This document shows positions 14,644 through 22,332 of a stretch of DNA of 64,000 nucleotides, piece by piece. The notes beneath the pieces were generated by a model, which saw only the letters and a program-made list of their open reading frames with translations, was not told where the DNA came from and searched no databases. Source of the DNA: Escherichia coli O157 typing phage 8; sequence record KP869106; one strand, 5' to 3'. The translations under genes were made by a program, and so were the position numbers. The first letter of the stretch is position 1. Each line of letters begins with the position of its first letter.

Positions 14644-14655
14644 ACAGATACTATA

Positions 14656-14680
14656 AGGGGACTGTAAAGGTTCCCTTTTT
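14656..14680 (+). terminator. putative terminator
   Basis: GGGGAC...GTTCCC hairpin plus TTTTT. Confidence 0.4.
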
Positions 14681-14694
14681 ATTTTGGAGGTAAA

Positions 14695-15210
14695 ATGTAT
14701 CTGTCAAACCTGAAACGTTCGGTTGCAATGTCAGTTCTAAGACTCAGCTTTGATGAGCGTCAAGAGTTTATAGACTCCCACAAATATGACCCTTCAAATT
14801 CTAATCACATGGTTCTTTGGAATCGTGGTAACTTACGTGAAAGAGCACTTGTCCGTTATTACCCACACTACACAATAGATAACCTGTATGAATGGTGTGT
14901 TGTGAAGAACACCATTGCAACACTGAACAATCTTTGCAGGTATACGGGTAAGCAAATATTTACATTAGGTCATCACAAACCTGTTACAAAAGGTGGTGAA
15001 CATCACTGTGCAAACTGGTTTATCCAAACTAAAGCTGATAACCAGAAGCAAGGAGATAGCCTCCTAAGTATCCCTAAGATGACCTATGAAGAGCAAGAGA
15101 AATATATCAAAAATAATATGCCAGATGTGCTTGACAACAACTATACAGATTTGGCAATATCTCTCCTGTTGAAGTTCGAGACAGTTTATAGGGCAACTTA
15201 TAATGACTAA
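14695..15210 (+). CDS. putative HNH-family nuclease
   Basis: LGHHKPVTKGGEHHCANWFIQTKADN resembles an HNH core. Confidence 0.35.
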   Translation: MYLSNLKRSVAMSVLRLSFDERQEFIDSHKYDPSNSNHMVLWNRGNLRERALVRYYPHYTIDNLYEWCVVKNTIATLNNLCRYTGKQIFTLGHHKPVTKGGEHHCANWFIQTKADNQKQGDSLLSIPKMTYEEQEKYIKNNMPDVLDNNYTDLAISLLLKFETVYRATYND

Positions 15211-15481
15211 AGAAAAGTGGGAGATTTTACCATTAGTCAGTGAAGGAGGTAATGGTTGTGAAATGTACATGATACGTGGTCATGTTCCAGAGCCAATTGC
15301 ACTTGAGATGGTAAACAACTTTACAGATGGTTCTTACAAAGACTTAGGCGAACCAACTGTCAAGCAACAATGGGTTAAACCTGTACCAGACAGCACAGGT
15401 AACTGTAGTGTACTTTATCACGTTGTAGACCCTGCAAAATGCAAATCTGCAATGGCAGTAACAAACGTAACTTTTGATTGA
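15203..15481 (+). CDS. hypothetical protein
   Basis: ORF. Confidence 0.4.
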   Translation: MTKEKWEILPLVSEGGNGCEMYMIRGHVPEPIALEMVNNFTDGSYKDLGEPTVKQQWVKPVPDSTGNCSVLYHVVDPAKCKSAMAVTNVTFD

Positions 15482-16374
15482 GAGAGAAAACTATGAAAAC
15501 ATCTATCCGTGTTACAGTTCATTCACCAACTAAAGGGACTCATGAAGAAGAGTTTAACATCGTCCAATTCCCTTCTGGTGAGATTGGTGGACACTTTTCG
15601 CCAGAGTTTGTTGATTTTACTGCTTATGCAGCATCATCCATCAACAATGTGATTATGATTGTAAAAGGTTATGACAAGGACACATTGTTTGCTGTGGCAC
15701 TTGCTAAAGAAGCAATTGATGATTTAATTCCTCATGATTATGCTTTAAAGACTGTCATCTTTTACTACTTACCAAATGCACGATATGACCGTCACATGTT
15801 TAAAGGTGACGCAGCAGCTTTAAAGGTTTTTGCTAAACAGATTAATGCAATGGGATTTGGCGCAGTCTGTGCAGTTGACCCTCACAGCTATGTACCAGAT
15901 AACCTGTTTAACTGCTTCCAGAGTATTCCTCAAAAGGAGATTGCAGTCCACTATGCAAATGACCCACTGGTTGATTACTTAGTAGCCCCAGATGCAGGTG
16001 CTGCTAAGAAGGTTGCAGAGACCGCTAAAGAGGTGGATAAACCATATATCACAATGTCTAAGGTGCGTAACCTTAAGACTGGTGAAATTACTGGTATGCG
16101 AATCCTTGATGATGTTGATTTGACAGATAAAACCGTCATGATTCTGGATGATATCTGTGATGGTGGTCGAACCTTCATAGAAGCAGCTAAGCATCTCCGT
16201 GAAGCAGGTGCAAAACGTGTGGAACTCTATGTAACACATGGTATCTTCTCTAAAGATGTTGAAAACCTTCTTGACAATGGTATTGACCATATCTACACTA
16301 CAAACTCTTTAGGGGAAGCTAAAGACCGTGGCTTAACACATTATGGTCAAGTTACTGTAGCAAACCTTGATTGA
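15478..16374 (+). CDS. ribose-phosphate pyrophosphokinase (PRPP synthetase)-like; candidate ADPR-PP synthetase (Adps) of NARP1
   Basis: Type I phosphoribosyltransferase motif VMILDDICDGGRTF; immediately upstream of NAMPT-like gene. Confidence 0.7.
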   Translation: MREKTMKTSIRVTVHSPTKGTHEEEFNIVQFPSGEIGGHFSPEFVDFTAYAASSINNVIMIVKGYDKDTLFAVALAKEAIDDLIPHDYALKTVIFYYLPNARYDRHMFKGDAAALKVFAKQINAMGFGAVCAVDPHSYVPDNLFNCFQSIPQKEIAVHYANDPLVDYLVAPDAGAAKKVAETAKEVDKPYITMSKVRNLKTGEITGMRILDDVDLTDKTVMILDDICDGGRTFIEAAKHLREAGAKRVELYVTHGIFSKDVENLLDNGIDHIYTTNSLGEAKDRGLTHYGQVTVANLD

Positions 16375-16383
16375 AACTTTATA

Positions 16384-16405
16384 GGGGCTTAAAAGCCCCA
16401 TTTTG
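16384..16405 (+). terminator. putative terminator / attenuator
   Basis: GGGGCTT-AAA-AGCCCC hairpin followed by ATTTT. Confidence 0.4.
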
Positions 16406-16419
16406 AGAGAGATTAAAAG

Positions 16420-18201
16420 ATGACTAAATCACTTTATGCAGTACCAGCAGGTTTAAATGCAGATGCTTACAAATCTGGTCATGTTTACCAGTATCCTAGT
16501 GCAACAGAATACTTGATGTTCAACCTGACACCACGTAGTGATAAATGGTTTAACAGCCCTTTAGCAATTGACGGTGTAGTGGCTTTTGGTATTCAACGTT
16601 TTGTTAAAGATTACTTGATAGACCACTGGAACGCCACTTTCTTTGAACGTGATAAAAAAGAAGCCATTGATGAAATCTTAGAAGTCATGAATGGTGTTCT
16701 GGGTAAAGATGCTATCGGTCGAGAGCATTGGGAAGCACTTCACGACTTAGGTTATCTACCAGTTGAAGTATACGCTGTAGAAGAAGGTACAGTTGTCCCT
16801 ATGCGTGTCCCAATGATTGTCTTCCAGAACACTGTTTCAGGTTTCCATTGGGTAGCGGGATATCTGGAAGATGCTTTCTCTGCTGAGATTTGGAAGGCTT
16901 GTACCATTGCAACTATTGCATTGCATTATAAACGCATCTGTAAGAAGTGGGCTGACCTTACTTGCGACAATGACTTACATTTACCTTATCAGTGCCATGA
17001 CTTTGCTATGCGTGGTATGTCCGGCTTTACTGATGACGCATTTAACGCTGTAGGCCACTTAACCAGCTTTAAAGGGACTGATAGCTTCCCTGCTGTATAT
17101 ACAGCTAAACGCATCTACGGACAGTCTTACCCAGTCTCTGATATTGGTGGTTCTGTACCAGCCACTGAACACTCTGTAATGTGTGCAAACATTGCTTGGG
17201 AAGGTGGTAATGAGTTGGTTGAAGAAGAAAGACGCTTTAAAGGTGAGTTGCAAACCTTCCGTCGCTTCTTAACAGAAACTTATCCAACTGGTATTGCAAG
17301 TATTGTTTCAGATACTTATAACTTCTGGAGAACTGTGTCAGAAATCTTACCAGCACTCCGTAAAGAAATTATGGAACGTGACGGTAAACTGGTGATTCGT
17401 CCTGATTCTGGAGACCCTGTACATATTGTCACAGGTTATAAAGCAATCCACTTAGAATGTGCTAAGAAGGCTTATTACGAGCACCTAAGCAAGCTGGAAG
17501 CCAGTGACACAATGCTGAATGCTGTTCTGAACATGAAGCTTGAAAATATCAGCTATGGTATTGCTGGATGGCTACTGTCAGAAGGCTACGAAATGGTTGT
17601 TGACAGAGAAGACTTTGAAGTTGCTGACACAGTGATGTTGAAAAATGCTTATATGGTTGGTTCTGCAAACGTTGTAACACGTCCTGTAGCTGAGATTGAT
17701 GGAGCTATTAAGACTCTGTATAACATCTTTGGAGGAACTATTAACTCTAAAGGTTTTAAGGTACTGGATGAGCACATTGGACTTATCTATGGCGACTCTA
17801 TCACGTTGGAACGTGCAAACGAAATCCTGAAGCGTCTGTATGAAATGGGGTTTGCAAGCTCTAACGTGGTGTTTGGTGTAGGCTCTTACACTTACCAGTA
17901 CATGACTCGTGACACCTTTGCATTTGCTGTCAAAGCAACTCTTGCAAGCATTGGTGGCAAAGAGATTATGCTTGCAAAAGACCCTAAAACAGATAGTGGT
18001 GTTAAGAAATCTGCCTTTGGTGGTGTAGCACCTATGTGGGATGGTGAGAATTTGAAAGCTGTAGATGGCTATGGATTCCAGAGCTTTGCAGATGCACTTG
18101 AACATCCAGCTTGTGCTTTACGTTTAGTCTTTAGCGACTCTGAGCAGTACGGTTACACAACTCTTGGTGATATTCGAAATAATATTGACAAGCAGCTTTA
18201 A
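16420..18201 (+). CDS. nicotinamide phosphoribosyltransferase (NAMPT)-family protein; candidate Namat of NARP1
   Basis: 593 aa; N-terminal YKSGHVYQYP resembles the NAMPT N-terminus; adjacent to Prs-like gene. Confidence 0.75.
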   Translation: MTKSLYAVPAGLNADAYKSGHVYQYPSATEYLMFNLTPRSDKWFNSPLAIDGVVAFGIQRFVKDYLIDHWNATFFERDKKEAIDEILEVMNGVLGKDAIGREHWEALHDLGYLPVEVYAVEEGTVVPMRVPMIVFQNTVSGFHWVAGYLEDAFSAEIWKACTIATIALHYKRICKKWADLTCDNDLHLPYQCHDFAMRGMSGFTDDAFNAVGHLTSFKGTDSFPAVYTAKRIYGQSYPVSDIGGSVPATEHSVMCANIAWEGGNELVEEERRFKGELQTFRRFLTETYPTGIASIVSDTYNFWRTVSEILPALRKEIMERDGKLVIRPDSGDPVHIVTGYKAIHLECAKKAYYEHLSKLEASDTMLNAVLNMKLENISYGIAGWLLSEGYEMVVDREDFEVADTVMLKNAYMVGSANVVTRPVAEIDGAIKTLYNIFGGTINSKGFKVLDEHIGLIYGDSITLERANEILKRLYEMGFASSNVVFGVGSYTYQYMTRDTFAFAVKATLASIGGKEIMLAKDPKTDSGVKKSAFGGVAPMWDGENLKAVDGYGFQSFADALEHPACALRLVFSDSEQYGYTTLGDIRNNIDKQL

Positions 18202-18214
18202 AAGTATATGATAA

Positions 18215-18238
18215 GAGGCTCCTACGGGAGCCTTTTTA
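18215..18238 (+). terminator. intrinsic terminator
   Basis: AGGCTCC-TACG-GGAGCCT followed by TTTTT. Confidence 0.6.
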
Positions 18239-18254
18239 ATTTCTGGAGAAGATT

Positions 18255-18590
18255 ATGAAAATCAAAGAGATGAACATCAACATTGTCTTAGAAGAACGTT
18301 GGGAGAATATTAAGAAACCTGAAGATGGTAAAAAGTTCCTTAACAAAATTTTAGTAGCAGCTAAAGAAGAACTGAATGGCAAGATTGCAGCAGCAGTCAC
18401 AATAAAAGTTTGTGTAAAAGGTCTTCCAGACAACCACCAATTTGCGCTTGACGAGTTTAAAAAAAGCTTCTACAATCCAAACAAACAGATGCTTGAAAGT
18501 AACTTTGCAGTATCTACAAGTATCGTCCATGACAGAAGCTTTATCCTTTACAAAAATATGAGAGGTGAGTCATGCAAGCATATTGGATAG
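18255..18590 (+). CDS. hypothetical protein
   Basis: ORF. Confidence 0.45.
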   Translation: MKIKEMNINIVLEERWENIKKPEDGKKFLNKILVAAKEELNGKIAAAVTIKVCVKGLPDNHQFALDEFKKSFYNPNKQMLESNFAVSTSIVHDRSFILYKNMRGESCKHIG

Positions 18591-18776: not shown

Positions 18777-21143
18777 ATGCGCATGGTAAATGACCACGCA
18801 GAAGTGATTAAGAGTTCAACTTCTTTAGAGACGTCTCAAGCACAGATTACAATGACACCTGAGATGTTCAGCCTTTTGAGTTCTGGTGTATATACCTTTA
18901 AAGAAAGGGCAGTGATTCGTGAACTGTCATGTAACGCAGTAGATGCTCAGAAAGAAGCTGGAAAAGAGAACATTCCGTTCCATGTGCATTTACCTACTCG
19001 TTTTGAGCCTTACTTTGAAGTTCGTGATTTTGGAACTGGATTGACTCATGATAAAGTTATGAGTTTGTACCTAAACTACGGGGCTTCTACGAAGAATGAC
19101 TCTAATGACTACATTGGTGCAATGGGTATCGGCTCAAAATCCCCATTTGCAATTGCTCAGTCATTCACAGTATCTAGCTATGTTGATGGTGTTGTTAATA
19201 AGTACTCTGTTTATCTTGAGAATGGTATCCCTCAAGTAACTAAGCTGACCACTAACCCAACAAAAGAACCTAATGGTTTAGCTGTACGTGTGGCAGTTGC
19301 TGACCACCGTATCTCAAAGTTCTTTGAAGAAGCTGGAAATGTGTACTCATACTTCACTGTAAAACCAGAAAGTAATATTGAGTACGACGATGTATTAGCA
19401 GATATGAACGTCATTGCCCGTGAAGAAGGTGTTTATGATGCCATGATTCATAAGCAAAGCTGGCGTTCTAGTGGTAACAGGACAGAGTTTAATGTGGTGA
19501 TGGGTAATATTGCCTATCCAGTGAACATGGAAGCATTACTTGGTGATGATTTCTTCAAAGTCTTGCCAGAGTTTTTCCGTAGGAGCGTAGACCTTGTAAA
19601 CATCTACATGCCTATTGGTTCAGTTGCTATAGCAGCTTCTCGTGAAGCATTGCAGATGAATGATACGACAAAAAATGTTATCATCGAGGCTACCAAAAAG
19701 ATAACTGAAGCAATTACAAAGGATGTTATCAAGAAAGTTAATAGCCAACCTACACTCATGGATGCTGCACAGGCTTATGCAGAGCTACGTTTGAACTCAC
19801 GAGAGATGTTTAATGCTGTGTGTCCAAAGCTAGAGTGGGGAGGCATTAAGCTTGATTCTCTGGAAGAAGAATTGTTAAACATTCGTCGTGGAATTATCTA
19901 CGCAGAAGACGGCTCAGTCATTTATGAACGTGACGGTAAAGGCAATATTAAGGTTGATAGGAACGGGAACAATATCCCTAAAGTAGATTATCTTTATGAC
20001 CCAGTTGCTTATGTCAAGTTCAACTCTTTAGAGAGTAAGATTCGTGCAACAGCACTTTCCTACACTCAAGAGGCAAGCATGTTCAATATCTTTGGTGCAA
20101 TGCGTAAAAGCCAAATTGAACAGTTTTTGTTCGTGATTAATGACCGTCGCAATAAAAACGGTACTGAGAAGACTGTAGGACGCAATCAAATTTTGCGTGG
20201 TGCATGTCGAGACTACGCCAGTGAGTCAAATCTGTTTCACAGATACAATGGTATTGTCTTTGTATTCTCGACTGAAAAAGAGTTAGATGATTTAATCAAT
20301 CTACACAAACTTGATAAAAGCTTGTTAAAGATTGTGAAGATGTCTGATAAGGAACACCACTATCAGCGTAAAGAAGCTGTAAGGGGTGTTGTAAAACTCT
20401 GGAAAGCTGTTCCAGCAGAAACTAAAGCTTCATACAAAGAGGTGTCAGAAGACTTAGACACAATTGAAGAGCCTCAGCTTTATATTAAGGCAGTAGGTGA
20501 CACAGTTGATGGTAGATGTTTTTGCTCATCTCCAGAGGATGTAGCTAAGTCAGTTGCTAATGTTACAGGCAAGACAGTCTATGTTTTCCGAAAAGCAAAT
20601 TGGAAAAAGATACCAGAAGACTGGATTGAAGTAGATGAGAAGCTCTTGAACGACAGCTTAACTGATGTTCATTGGATTAACCATAACAGGTATATGACAC
20701 GCATCTACATGGATGGTGTCCTCGACCTTACAAGCAGTTGGATTATTGCCAGAAACTTTACGTTCAATAACAGGAAGATTTCTCGCGGGTATTGTTATTC
20801 AAGGGATACTATTAAGACAATCTTCTTAGAAGGGAATGAAGATGCTGTTGAGGCAATGTTCGGTAAGATTCAGTATGTGGCTGCACCGTTTGCATACACT
20901 TACACTATCAGTGTTCTTCAGGATTTGAAGTCATGCCTTGATAATGACACAAAACTGTACAAAAAGATTAAAAAAGCAGGTGACCGCATGGTTATCAAGC
21001 TGACAAACTATCTTTCAAAAAGAAAACAAGAAAACTTCTTGCTTTCACACTTAGATTGGAATAAAGTATCACCTATCGAAGTGAGTAAGTTTTTAGGCTT
21101 TAATGTGAAATGTGTTCCAGAAGGTACAACAATTTACGATTAA
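18777..21143 (+). CDS. rIIA: rIIA-like protein (GHKL ATPase fold)
   Basis: N-terminal Bergerat-fold motifs RELSCNAVDA, RDFGTGL, SNDYIGAMGIGSKSPF, close to the T4 rIIA N-terminus from memory. Confidence 0.8.
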   Translation: MRMVNDHAEVIKSSTSLETSQAQITMTPEMFSLLSSGVYTFKERAVIRELSCNAVDAQKEAGKENIPFHVHLPTRFEPYFEVRDFGTGLTHDKVMSLYLNYGASTKNDSNDYIGAMGIGSKSPFAIAQSFTVSSYVDGVVNKYSVYLENGIPQVTKLTTNPTKEPNGLAVRVAVADHRISKFFEEAGNVYSYFTVKPESNIEYDDVLADMNVIAREEGVYDAMIHKQSWRSSGNRTEFNVVMGNIAYPVNMEALLGDDFFKVLPEFFRRSVDLVNIYMPIGSVAIAASREALQMNDTTKNVIIEATKKITEAITKDVIKKVNSQPTLMDAAQAYAELRLNSREMFNAVCPKLEWGGIKLDSLEEELLNIRRGIIYAEDGSVIYERDGKGNIKVDRNGNNIPKVDYLYDPVAYVKFNSLESKIRATALSYTQEASMFNIFGAMRKSQIEQFLFVINDRRNKNGTEKTVGRNQILRGACRDYASESNLFHRYNGIVFVFSTEKELDDLINLHKLDKSLLKIVKMSDKEHHYQRKEAVRGVVKLWKAVPAETKASYKEVSEDLDTIEEPQLYIKAVGDTVDGRCFCSSPEDVAKSVANVTGKTVYVFRKANWKKIPEDWIEVDEKLLNDSLTDVHWINHNRYMTRIYMDGVLDLTSSWIIARNFTFNNRKISRGYCYSRDTIKTIFLEGNEDAVEAMFGKIQYVAAPFAYTYTISVLQDLKSCLDNDTKLYKKIKKAGDRMVIKLTNYLSKRKQENFLLSHLDWNKVSPIEVSKFLGFNVKCVPEGTTIYD

Positions 21144-21222
21144 AGTGTTTGACAAGGGGCTTTGAAGCCCCTTAGAATAGCCTCACAAATTGATTGATTA
21201 ACTAACAAGAGAGAGTAATAAG

Positions 21223-22332
21223 ATGACTACTAAAACTAAAGCACAGATTGACGCAGAAATTTACAAACTGGTTAAAGAAGGTAAGCTGACTAAAACAGCT
21301 ATTGCACAGAAGTTCAATACTTCAACCCGTTCAGTTGGTCGTGCTGTAGAGCGTCATGAAGCAACCTTAAAAGGCAAGAAGAAGGCAACTTCTACACCAG
21401 CTACGAAGACTTTGAAACAAGTTGCTAAGACTTTTAAAAAGAAAGCTGGCAAACCAGTTGAAAAGGTCGTTAAAGACACTGTACAGAAAGCTCCAGTAAA
21501 TAAACTGCACGAAGCTATGCAGAAAGATGACAAGATTGAGTACATGATTACTGGTGATTCTGTAATTATGACTTATGGTTCAGAATCTGAAATTGTTGAG
21601 TCTACTCATCCGAACTATCAAGAGATTGTAGTTCATGTTGTGAAAGGTGAGTTCAAGAAAGCATTTGAACTGATGAACATTCGTAAGTCTATCGAAAACT
21701 TCACTCAGGGTGCTATCACAATCAAAGGCGACAAGCTATTCTACGGTGCTGTTGAGATGCGTTCTACTCTGGTTGACCGTATTCTTCACATGATGAAAAC
21801 TGGCGATAAAGGTTTTGAACGACTTGTAATGTTCTTCGAAAAACTGATGGAAAACCCATCTAAAGATTCTGTAGAACAACTTTGGGGATTTGTATCTCAC
21901 CTTGATGTTGAAATTGATGAAGAAGGCTACATCATTGGTTGGAAGAAAGTCTCTACTCGTGAAGGCAAGCTGGTTGACTCTCACACCTACAAAGTGCCTA
22001 ATGATTTGGGTAACATTGTAGAAATGCCACGTTGGATGGTTGATAATAACCGTAACGTAACTTGCTCTCAAGGTCTTCATGTTGGTGCTTGGGATTATGT
22101 TCGTTGCTTCTCAGGTGATACAATCCTGAAGGTTCGCGTACATCCACGAGATGTTGTATCTGTTCCAACTGATTACAATGATATGAAGATGCGTTCCTCT
22201 CGTTATGAAGTTGCAGCAATCGTTGATAATCAACGTAAAGTGCTGGAAGCATGGGACGGTAAGACTGAAGCTTTGCATGTCATCGTTGGCACTGCTGGTG
22301 AACTCATCTCTCAACGTAAACGTGAAATCTAA
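21223..22332 (+). CDS. rIIB: rIIB-like protein (by position)
   Basis: 369 aa directly downstream of rIIA, the conserved rIIA-rIIB arrangement. Confidence 0.45.
   Translation: MTTKTKAQIDAEIYKLVKEGKLTKTAIAQKFNTSTRSVGRAVERHEATLKGKKKATSTPATKTLKQVAKTFKKKAGKPVEKVVKDTVQKAPVNKLHEAMQKDDKIEYMITGDSVIMTYGSESEIVESTHPNYQEIVVHVVKGEFKKAFELMNIRKSIENFTQGAITIKGDKLFYGAVEMRSTLVDRILHMMKTGDKGFERLVMFFEKLMENPSKDSVEQLWGFVSHLDVEIDEEGYIIGWKKVSTREGKLVDSHTYKVPNDLGNIVEMPRWMVDNNRNVTCSQGLHVGAWDYVRCFSGDTILKVRVHPRDVVSVPTDYNDMKMRSSRYEVAAIVDNQRKVLEAWDGKTEALHVIVGTAGELISQRKREI

Follow-up and report, generated by a model that had tools for sequence, protein, structure and literature searches.

The adps-namat gene pair of Escherichia phage wV8, a very probable NARP1 operon

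The two genes at positions 15493-18201 of the 64,000-nt stretch of DNA analyzed here (the window) very probably are the NARP1 operon in Escherichia phage wV8. When its GenBank record is read across the ends, the genome of this Felixounavirus agrees with the window at 100% identity. Genes 79-80 of the sister phage Bas63 served to define NARP1 (Osterman et al., bioRxiv 10.1101/2024.02.11.579819), and the pair is already known, since the wV8 proteins are tabulated in the paper defining the pathway. The exact Adps and Namat sequences are present in its supplementary Tables S1 and S2; the wV8 Adps row of Table S1 has the entry "Yes" in the column "Namat within 10 genes", and the Namat (EU877232_00149) is labelled "Adps-associated" in Table S2. 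An earlier note on this DNA had recognized a match to NARP1, which is borne out by these tables and by orthology to Bas63 genes 79 and 80 (78% identity for Adps and 98% for Namat). Orthology, gene order, signature residues, fold and the absence of an NMNAT gene from the Pfam matches listed were established in the present analysis; by analogy with characterized relatives, we infer the Adps and Namat activities of the wV8 proteins themselves. The current understanding of the NARP1 pathway is unaltered by the wV8 locus.

Gene boundaries and hairpins

As described in the earlier note, a Prs-like gene is located directly upstream of a NAMPT-like gene encoding 593 aa on the same strand, and the gap between the two is 45 nt (Table 1). 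The pair is part of a nucleotide-metabolism block that also contains nrdA/B, nrdD/G and a MazG-like gene. For 97% of the Adps clade, a Namat homologue is encoded no more than 10 genes away (Osterman et al., bioRxiv 10.1101/2024.02.11.579819). The length of 298 aa given previously for the Prs-like protein holds for the open reading frame from TTG 15478, but not for the protein. This codon overlaps the stop codon of the upstream ORF (15479-15481), a Shine-Dalgarno-like run (GAGAGAG) is found upstream of ATG 15493, and a protein of 293 aa agrees in length with the Bas63 annotation and in sequence with the entry of Osterman et al.; ATG 15493 is almost certainly the true start of adps.

A terminator-like hairpin had also been reported between the genes. 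The hairpin is indeed present and folds with -12.6 kcal/mol in a 56-nt stretch (z = -2.6), but its role as a terminator could not be upheld: only four T follow the stem and the terminator scan made no call. A terminator splitting the pair into two transcription units was rejected on these grounds and also on that of phage Mushroom, in which the spacer between adps and namat contains an HNH homing-endonuclease gene, the hairpin is absent and the pair is intact. Because the stem is invariant in Bas63, where a single change is found in the loop, there is no covariation evidence for the hairpin. At most, it attenuates transcription weakly or affects RNA stability, and it is dispensable. The hairpin detected downstream of namat is a strong terminator-like site and likely marks the end of the transcription unit.

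Altogether, 258 phage records match; with few exceptions, the genes of the listed relatives are annotated as ribose-phosphate pyrophosphokinase and nicotinamide/nicotinate phosphoribosyltransferase, as are those of wV8. The NARP1 work of Osterman et al. reportedly appeared in Nature in 2024. The practical use of the assignment is re-annotation, as the literature leads to the names Adps and Namat and to an anti-defence pathway, whereas the NCBIfam models would go on giving Prs- and NAMPT-type names to the two genes.

Table 1. Features of the wV8 locus and of the distal Macro gene (positions in the window)
Feature	Coordinates	Strand	Remarks
adps, ADP-ribose pyrophosphokinase (PRPS-like), 293 aa	15493..16374	+	Orthologue of Bas63 gp79; wV8 gene 135
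Intergenic hairpin	16384..16399	+	GC-rich; GGGGCT-TAAA-AGCCCC with a stem of 6 bp and a TAAA loop, then ATTTTG
namat, nicotinamide ADP-ribose transferase (NAMPT-like), 593 aa	16420..18201	+	Orthologue of Bas63 gp80; wV8 gene 136
77-aa Namat insertion, aa 351-427	17470..17700	+	Predicted folded alpha/beta subdomain; absent from SPbetaL1 Namat and NAMPT
Terminator-like hairpin and T-run 3' of namat	18213..18236	+	Terminator scan: 10-bp stem, 5 GC pairs, tail TAATTTCTGG
Macro-domain "phosphatase", 261 aa	25704..26489	+	7.5 kb, about a dozen genes, downstream of the operon

Signature residues and folds of Adps and Namat

Adps is a PRPS-like two-domain protein with matches to Pfam Pribosyltran and Pribosyl_synth and to PHROG 619 (7.6e-97). 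The type I phosphoribosyltransferase motif VMILDDICDGGRTF noticed previously was found at aa 215-228. The donor (PP) loop reads D219-D220-I221-C222-D223-G-G-R-T227, compared to DDMIDTGGT in Escherichia coli Prs, and its first five residues equal D212-D216 of the Adps from Vibrio phage ICP1. A remodelled PP loop is conserved among Adps homologues (DDICDGAAS in ICP1, with C215-S220; PMC13586617). Table S1 of Osterman et al. supplied the Adps sequences of ICP1 and SPbetaL1 for an alignment, in which F26, R97, H131, D167, K190 and F228 are kept (ICP1 F18, R87, H121, D161, K185 and F221), and the catalytic beta-hairpin lysine K190 aligns with K162 of SPbetaL1 as well. Of the three residues contacting the adenine of ADP-ribose (ADPR) in ICP1 (F18, R87 and F92), F92 is replaced by M102. 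This exchange is a point against the assignment; SPbetaL1 Adps, which is active, does not conserve F92 either. The C-terminal alpha11-alpha12 module of PRPS is absent: in the alignment, E. coli Prs extends approximately 20 residues beyond the last residue of Adps. In a PDB search, which had no Adps structure among its entries, the best matches were archaeal and human PRPS with E values of 3e-18 or weaker. Adps passes the broad NCBIfam model TIGR01251 (123.6 bits, cut-off 113), but all equivalog models and three of the four subfamily-type models for housekeeping Prs were missed widely (e.g., 105.5 versus 296 and 92 versus 297).

Namat matches Pfam NAPRTase and NAMPT_N as well as PHROG 448 (7.6e-203) and passes NCBIfam NF006629. 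Its catalytic core is intact (D15, Y17, F195, R198, D221, H251, R327, D329 and G458-D459), with Y17, F195, R198, D221, H251, R327 and D329 all invariant in A4. The motif G488-S-Y490-T-Y-Q-Y494-M-T-R-D498 (GSYTYQYMTRD) is the signature of the ADPR-pyrophosphate (ADPR-PP) selectivity clamp (PMC12774641) and not of the NAMPT type. The selectivity-clamp loop is S40-D41-K42-W43, identical in Bas63 Namat. Such loops have Arg, Lys or Tyr at position 3 together with a stacking residue, and in Bas63 position 4 stacks on the adenine. SPbetaL1 Namat prefers ADPR-PP over PRPP (PMC12774641). The closest solved structures are those of SPbetaL1 Namat (9w5w/9w5x, E 1e-127), and the predicted structure of the wV8 protein (pLDDT 93.6) fits best to the same crystals (TM 0.95), not to NadV or NAMPT. 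Thus, with its clamp signature and the label "Adps-associated", the protein does not group with NMN-forming NAMPT, the outcome that would have spoken against the earlier proposal. Housekeeping Prs or NAMPT were rejected as identities on the basis of the NCBIfam cut-offs and the signature residues of both proteins.

The unusual length of the NAMPT-like protein had been pointed out before and was confirmed; compared to the SPbetaL1 Namat crystal sequence, the extra length is mainly one insertion of 77 aa. This insertion is specific for Ounavirinae, and a fold search with aa 351-427 returned no match. Smaller insertions relative to SPbetaL1 are located within aa 258-276 (15 gap positions) and at aa 45-48.

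Proposed mechanism and competing readings

NAD+-depleting defence systems such as SIR2-HerA, type I Thoeris, DSR1/2 and SEFIR split NAD+ into ADPR and nicotinamide. Adps would then transfer the beta-gamma pyrophosphate of ATP to ADPR, at the 1'' hydroxyl of its distal ribose, yielding ADPR-PP, from which Namat would form NAD+ and pyrophosphate with nicotinamide in one step of NAMPT-type chemistry. Such a route would require neither an NMN intermediate nor a host salvage enzyme. For wV8, the mechanism is proposed on the strength of data obtained by others on orthologues: the chemistry from SPbetaL1 and ICP1, the anti-defence phenotype from deletions of Bas63 genes 79-80. The reaction of ADPR and ATP to ADPR-PP and AMP was demonstrated for the SPbetaL1 and ICP1 enzymes, that is on homologues approximately 30% identical, because Bas63 Adps could not be purified. 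Deletion of Bas63 genes 79-80 results in sensitivity to SIR2-HerA, also when the host has neither pncC nor nadR, and ADPR-PP (m/z 720.010) was detected only when the Bas63 operon was present (bioRxiv 10.1101/2024.02.11.579819). In an independent screen, PhageMaP, deletion of Bas63 g79 or g80 led to a plating loss of 10^4-10^6 on Sir2-HerA cells.

It is highly unlikely that the operon is instead chiefly a housekeeping booster of NAD+ in phage metabolism that counters defence only incidentally. The surrounding nucleotide-metabolism genes, the ribonucleotide reductase and DNA ligase genes nearby or elsewhere in the phage genome, and a residual NMN synthesis by Namat would suit such a booster; however, ADPR-PP was seen solely with an active defence system, the Bas63 deletion mutant plates poorly on defence-carrying cells, and the substrate ADPR comes from NADase effectors.

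Still less probable is ordinary salvage, in which PRPP comes from a true PRPP synthetase and NMN from a true NAMPT, and NAD+ is completed by NadR or PncC of the host. The family names in Pfam, PHROG and NCBIfam, namely Prs and NAMPT/NAPRT, agree with it, as does the passing of TIGR01251 and NF006629, and SPbetaL1 Namat keeps approximately half of the PRPP-to-NMN activity of human NAMPT in vitro (PMC12774641). In view of this residual activity of Namat enzymes, ordinary salvage may make some contribution. Nevertheless, the Bas63 orthologues function without host pncC and nadR, and SPbetaL1 Adps gave no measurable product with ATP and the canonical substrate (ribose-5-phosphate according to the figure legend) but used ADPR. 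In addition, the clamp motif is specific for Namat, the regulatory and filament elements of PRPS are missing from Adps, and the specific Prs models remain far under their cut-offs.

A NARP2-type pathway, in which the NAMPT-like protein feeds a phage NMNAT, or a NARP3-type pathway with PnuC and NadR can practically be dismissed: approximately 20% of the phage Namat/Nampt homologues belong to the Nmnat-associated clade, but wV8 Namat is of the Adps-associated kind and has an adps gene adjacent to it, and both pathways were excluded because no NMNAT, PnuC or NadR gene was among the Pfam matches listed. Here, the earlier observation that no NMNAT gene is nearby could be extended by Pfam scans: NMNAT (CTP_transf_like), Nudix, PnuC and NadR were not among the matches listed for the 75 ORFs of the window with 85 aa or more, the list for one group of ORFs comprising 25 of 29 families, and the unannotated ORFs in the 24.5 kb of the wV8 genome that the window does not cover gave no Pfam match to these families. 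An NMNAT gene elsewhere in the phage, which the earlier note had named as a finding against its proposal, was accordingly not among the matches either.

Distal Macro gene and comparison with characterized systems

The NARP1 reading raises the question of accessory genes. NARP1-AP (Adps-Adpp-Namat) of Vibrio phage Gary (bioRxiv 10.64898/2026.01.28.702374) has the Adps and Namat cores in common with wV8; in this type of locus the Macro protein, with a length of 148 aa, is encoded in the operon, whereas that of wV8 has 261 aa and is encoded outside. Operon-embedded accessory genes (Macro Adpp or the RyR-domain RyDEP) were considered and rejected: for the flanking ORFs 14695, 15203 and 18255, all PHROG matches are to families of unknown function, no RyR domain match was obtained, and no Macro Adpp gene is located within two genes of wV8 NARP1, the sole Macro gene being the distal one. 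The distal protein matches Pfam Macro over aa 25-141 (31.6 bits, cut-off 22) and phrog_335 (8e-113); in the PDB, it matches OARD1 and Poa1p weakly. Vibrio phage K354 (locus L005), an example of NARP1-AP, has an operon-embedded phosphatase that also belongs to phrog_335 and is 26% identical to the wV8 protein. As a working hypothesis only, the Macro gene is a candidate for an unlinked Adpp-like ADPR-1''-phosphate phosphatase, which would convert ADPR-1''-phosphate, the product of aRES/RES defence, into ADPR for Adps.

A dispersed three-gene NARP1 in felixounaviruses (wV8 and Bas63), with an unlinked Macro Adpp and with the 77-aa Namat insertion and the mosaic Adps N-terminus as adaptations, is a speculative and rather unlikely extension. 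The latter two could serve, for example, in partner docking or in escape from host inhibitors. If the dispersed version were true, NARP1-AP capability would be commoner than the published 15%, a survey value limited to Macro genes no more than two genes away from the operon (bioRxiv 10.64898/2026.01.28.702374). For the use of wV8 in phage therapy or E. coli O157 typing, the presence of NARP1 predicts resistance to SIR2-HerA, Thoeris I, DSR and SEFIR. Sensitivity is predicted for aRES, provided that the distal Macro protein does not compensate.

Among the characterized systems, Bas63 (JohannRWettstein) belongs to the same genus and has the same adps-namat order, the same protein lengths (293 and 593 aa) and a comparable spacer. 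The 77-aa insertion and the K42-W43 loop are included in the likeness of the two Namat proteins, and the extra 345-bp gene bas63_0081 following namat in Bas63 is missing in the wV8 window. The Adps proteins are 67% identical in aa 1-180 and 96% identical in aa 181-293, the C-terminal catalytic half. The N-terminal approximately 170 codons of adps represent a divergent allele (59-66% DNA identity at 15500-15800, 90-99% in the flanks); judged by sequence, the N-terminal domain is mosaic relative to Bas63. That this domain is just 67% identical to the tested Bas63 allele is a point against the assignment.

The SPbetaL1 pair is more distant (47% identity for Namat, 31% for Adps) and shares the catalytic residues, the clamp helix GSXoXoXoTRD and the Adps catalytic lysine with wV8. 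Its Namat has Arg40 in the clamp loop instead of Lys42-Trp43 and lacks the 77-aa and roughly 15-aa insertions, and its Adps donor loop is DDLSSFGG, compared to DDICDGG in wV8. ICP1 Adps is 33% identical to wV8 Adps; both have the DDICD loop, followed by GAAS in ICP1 and GGRT in wV8, and both lack the PRPS alpha11-alpha12 tail (PMC13586617), whereas ICP1 F92 and F223 correspond to Met and Glu in wV8. E. coli Prs (b1207) has the same fold and phosphoribosyl-transfer chemistry at 22% identity to wV8 Adps; it differs in its C-terminal regulatory module, absent from the phage protein, and in its PP loop (DDMIDTGG). Human NAMPT and Haemophilus ducreyi NadV (PDB 9ke8) have the fold of wV8 Namat, in which the Namat clamp motif replaces the equivalent NAMPT helix.

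The gene pair and its genome

The window encodes a Prs-like protein, Adps, directly followed by a NAMPT-like protein, Namat; this adjacent pair is real and far beyond chance. Adps matches the Pfam families Pribosyltran and Pribosyl_synth as well as PHROG 619 ('ribose-phosphate pyrophosphokinase', 7.6e-97) and carries the motif VMILDDICDGGRTF at aa 215-228, and Namat matches NAPRTase, NAMPT_N and PHROG 448 (7.6e-203). The earlier note had described a gene with a phosphoribosyltransferase motif next to a NAMPT-family gene of 593 aa, and this description holds. Its length of 298 aa for the Prs-like protein stands only as an open reading frame: the TTG start overlaps the stop codon of the preceding ORF, but the ATG 15 bases 3' of it is preceded by a GAGAGAG run, as is the namat ATG, and yields the length that is annotated in Escherichia phage JohannRWettstein (Bas63, MZ501086) and present in the published wV8 sequence.

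Positions of the gene pair and associated features in the window
Feature	Position	Strand	Basis
Terminator-like site	14655-14677		terminator scan
Prs-like ORF (adps)	15478-16374 from TTG, 298 aa; from ATG 15493, 293 aa	+	ORF scan
Intergenic hairpin	16384-16399		stable fold, z -2.6
NAMPT-like ORF (namat)	16420-18201, 593 aa	+	ORF scan
Terminator-like site	18213-18236		terminator scan
Macro-domain protein, 261 aa	25704-26489	+	Pfam Macro 31.6 bits; phrog_335 'phosphatase' 8e-113

Escherichia phage wV8 (EU877232 / NC_012749, Felixounavirus) matches the window at 100% identity over 15300-18400 and over 40000-64000. The window spans the ends of the linear wV8 record, 18851 being record position 1, just within the rIIA ORF; since it crosses these ends at 18850/18851, the genome was either read as a circle or taken from an assembly opened at another point. 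The pair is present in 258 phage records, which with few exceptions come from Ounavirinae of Escherichia, Salmonella, Shigella and Citrobacter. Among the matches listed, nearly all annotated records name the pair Prs and NAMPT or NAPRT, and mending this stale annotation is the chief use of the finding. Namat-like proteins of ~495 aa with the clamp motif GSYTYQYNTRD are also encoded in Klebsiella, Cronobacter, Kosakonia and Phytobacter, on chromosomal contigs several megabases long (P0073, P0083 and others from the Namat homologue search; the P0073 cluster has 1229 member sequences). With these, Enterobacteriaceae may have NARP1-type genes of their own.

Assignment to NARP1

NARP1, the pathway in which Adps and Namat rebuild NAD+, was defined on genes 79-80 of Bas63, also a Felixounavirus. 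Bas63 without these genes is sensitive to SIR2-HerA and NAD+ is lowered, the effect of the pair is retained in a host without pncC and nadR, ADPR-PP (m/z 720.010) was seen only with operon and defence together, and the chemistry was demonstrated on SPbetaL1 homologues (Osterman et al., bioRxiv 10.1101/2024.02.11.579819). In an independent gene-essentiality screen, deletion of Bas63 g79 or g80 resulted in a 10^4-10^6 plating loss on Sir2-HerA cells. The products of bas63_0079 and bas63_0080 have 293 and 593 aa and are 78% (Adps) and 98% (Namat) identical to the window proteins, with the same gene order and a comparable spacer. Furthermore, the supplementary Prs/Adps table of Osterman et al. lists EU877232_00148, whose sequence is exactly the 293 aa of the window, and their Namat table labels EU877232_00149 'Adps-associated'. 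The entry 'Namat within 10 genes: Yes' stands in the row ending with the window Adps sequence, before the next entry, and was taken as the wV8 row. Orthology to Bas63 and the listing of wV8 therefore establish that the proposed NARP1 reading is correct: the initial observation was accurate, its interpretation is supported, and the pair was already known and catalogued down to this very phage.

The residues of both proteins were compared with those of the characterised enzymes. In ICP1 Adps, F18, R87 and F92 touch the adenine of ADPR, H121, D161, D212 and D213 are found along the acceptor groove, the hairpin carries the essential lysine K185, and the ATP donor is bound by a PP loop that has been remodelled (C215-S220); absence of the PRPS alpha11-alpha12 tail is a family signature according to the authors (PMC13586617). 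An alignment of window Adps with those of ICP1, SPbetaL1, Vibrio phage K354 and Bas63 and with E. coli Prs showed that it keeps F26, R97, H131, D167, K190, D219-D220-I221-C222-D223, T227 and F228 and stops about 20 residues short of the E. coli Prs end. The position of ICP1 F92 is Met in the window protein, and the active SPbetaL1 enzyme does not conserve this Phe either. Only the broad model TIGR01251 is passed (123.6 bits, cut-off 113), and all specific Prs models are missed by a wide margin (e.g. 92 vs 297).

For Namat, the structural study of the SPbetaL1 enzyme defines an ADPR-PP 'selectivity clamp', whose loop has Arg, Lys or Tyr in third place; a Lys or Tyr there goes with stacking of the fourth residue on the adenine, which is the case in Bas63 (PMC12774641). 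Alignment to PDB 9w5x located the loop S40-D41-K42-W43, the clamp helix G488-S-Y-T-Y-Q-Y-M-T-R-D498 and the core residues D15, Y17, F195, R198, D221, A248, catalytic H251, R327, D329 and G458-D459. The top solved matches of the AlphaFold2 model (36 homologues, pLDDT 93.6) are Namat crystals (TM 0.95, target-normalised), ranking above H. ducreyi NadV and human NAMPT; with the clamp residues present, the protein does not group with NMN-forming NAMPT.

A three-batch Pfam scan of 75 window ORFs of >=85 aa (the third batch showing 25 of 29 families) detected RNR genes, NrdG, endonucleases, structural proteins, a MazG-like domain and a single Macro domain, and no match to NMNAT (CTP_transf_like), Nudix, PnuC, NadR or RyR. 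The 24.5 kb of wV8 beyond the window contain no such annotation, and their unannotated ORFs have no such Pfam match. The claim that no NMNAT-like gene lies nearby is thus confirmed, and NARP2 (NAMPT and NMNAT) and NARP3 (PnuC and NadR) are therefore ruled out.

Variable segments of the operon

The leads that remain are the Namat insertion, a mosaic Adps domain and a distal Macro gene. The earlier note had put Namat at about 100 aa more than canonical NAMPT; compared to SPbetaL1 Namat it has a 77-aa insertion at aa 351-427, directly after the conserved RPDSGDPxxIxCG strand, 15 further residues past the catalytic His, within aa 258-276, and another 4 in the clamp loop. The 77-aa segment gave tblastn matches only in 253 Ounavirinae-type records and is predicted to form a compact beta-alpha3-beta2-alpha-beta-alpha subdomain (pLDDT 94-97 in context, 89.4 alone). 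This site is a variable hot spot, since insertions found here in a wider alignment are unrelated to one another and range from 0 to about 95 aa. The 77-aa insertion is compatible with activity, being present also in Bas63 Namat, which works in vivo.

The Adps N-terminal domain (15500-16000, codons 1 to about 170) is mosaic, with a sharp boundary relative to Bas63. DNA identity is 99% at 15400-15499, falls to 59-66% at 15500-15799, rises to 77-78% until 16000 and stands at about 90% from there on; the proteins share 67% of residues over aa 1-180 and 96% over aa 181-293. Adps N-terminal alleles are divergent within Felixounavirus, whereas Namat is 98% identical.

The two terminator-like sites enclose four co-oriented genes, those at 14695 and 15203, adps and namat. 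A terminator-like hairpin had been proposed between adps and namat; a stable hairpin is indeed present, with a stem identical in Bas63, but it is poor in T-tract and was passed over by the terminator scan. In Salmonella phage Mushroom (L007:1384-1875) a 163-aa HNH/AP2 homing endonuclease lies exactly between the two genes, both of which are intact, and the hairpin is missing; the hairpin is thus dispensable and the spacer 16375-16419 a homing site. Several other Felixounaviruses also have an HNH gene in this region. Downstream of namat, Bas63 (L004) contains an extra 345-bp hypothetical gene, bas63_0081 (L004:17509-17853), which wV8 lacks (about 18202-18254), and the same roughly 350-bp indel occurs in some relatives.

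Distal Macro gene and neighbouring anti-defence genes

In NARP1-AP (Adps-Adpp-Namat), Adpp turns ADPR-1''-phosphate, the aRES product, into ADPR; the survey tallied only Macro genes <=2 genes from NARP1 (bioRxiv 10.64898/2026.01.28.702374), so that a more distant one would have escaped it. K354 agrees with this published architecture, encoding a 148-aa phosphatase between adps and namat that also belongs to phrog_335. That the window Macro protein might supply NARP1 as an unlinked ADPR-1''-phosphate phosphatase is no more than a hypothesis, because its pairwise identity to the K354 protein is 26% and the family is widespread in phages, T4-like and others (2841 records). By position and length it is the counterpart of Bas63_0095 ('putative phosphatase'), and it has about 100 additional C-terminal residues.

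Neighbours of the pair have orthologues in Bas63. Window 14695-15210 is the orthologue of gene 77, a reported counter of retron Ec67 that the paper describes as GIY-YIG and that is weakly HNH-like in our scan, and 18777-22332 holds the orthologues of rIIA/rIIB (genes 84/85), reported as QatABCD counters. Thus, the NARP1 operon of this phage sits among other anti-defence genes.
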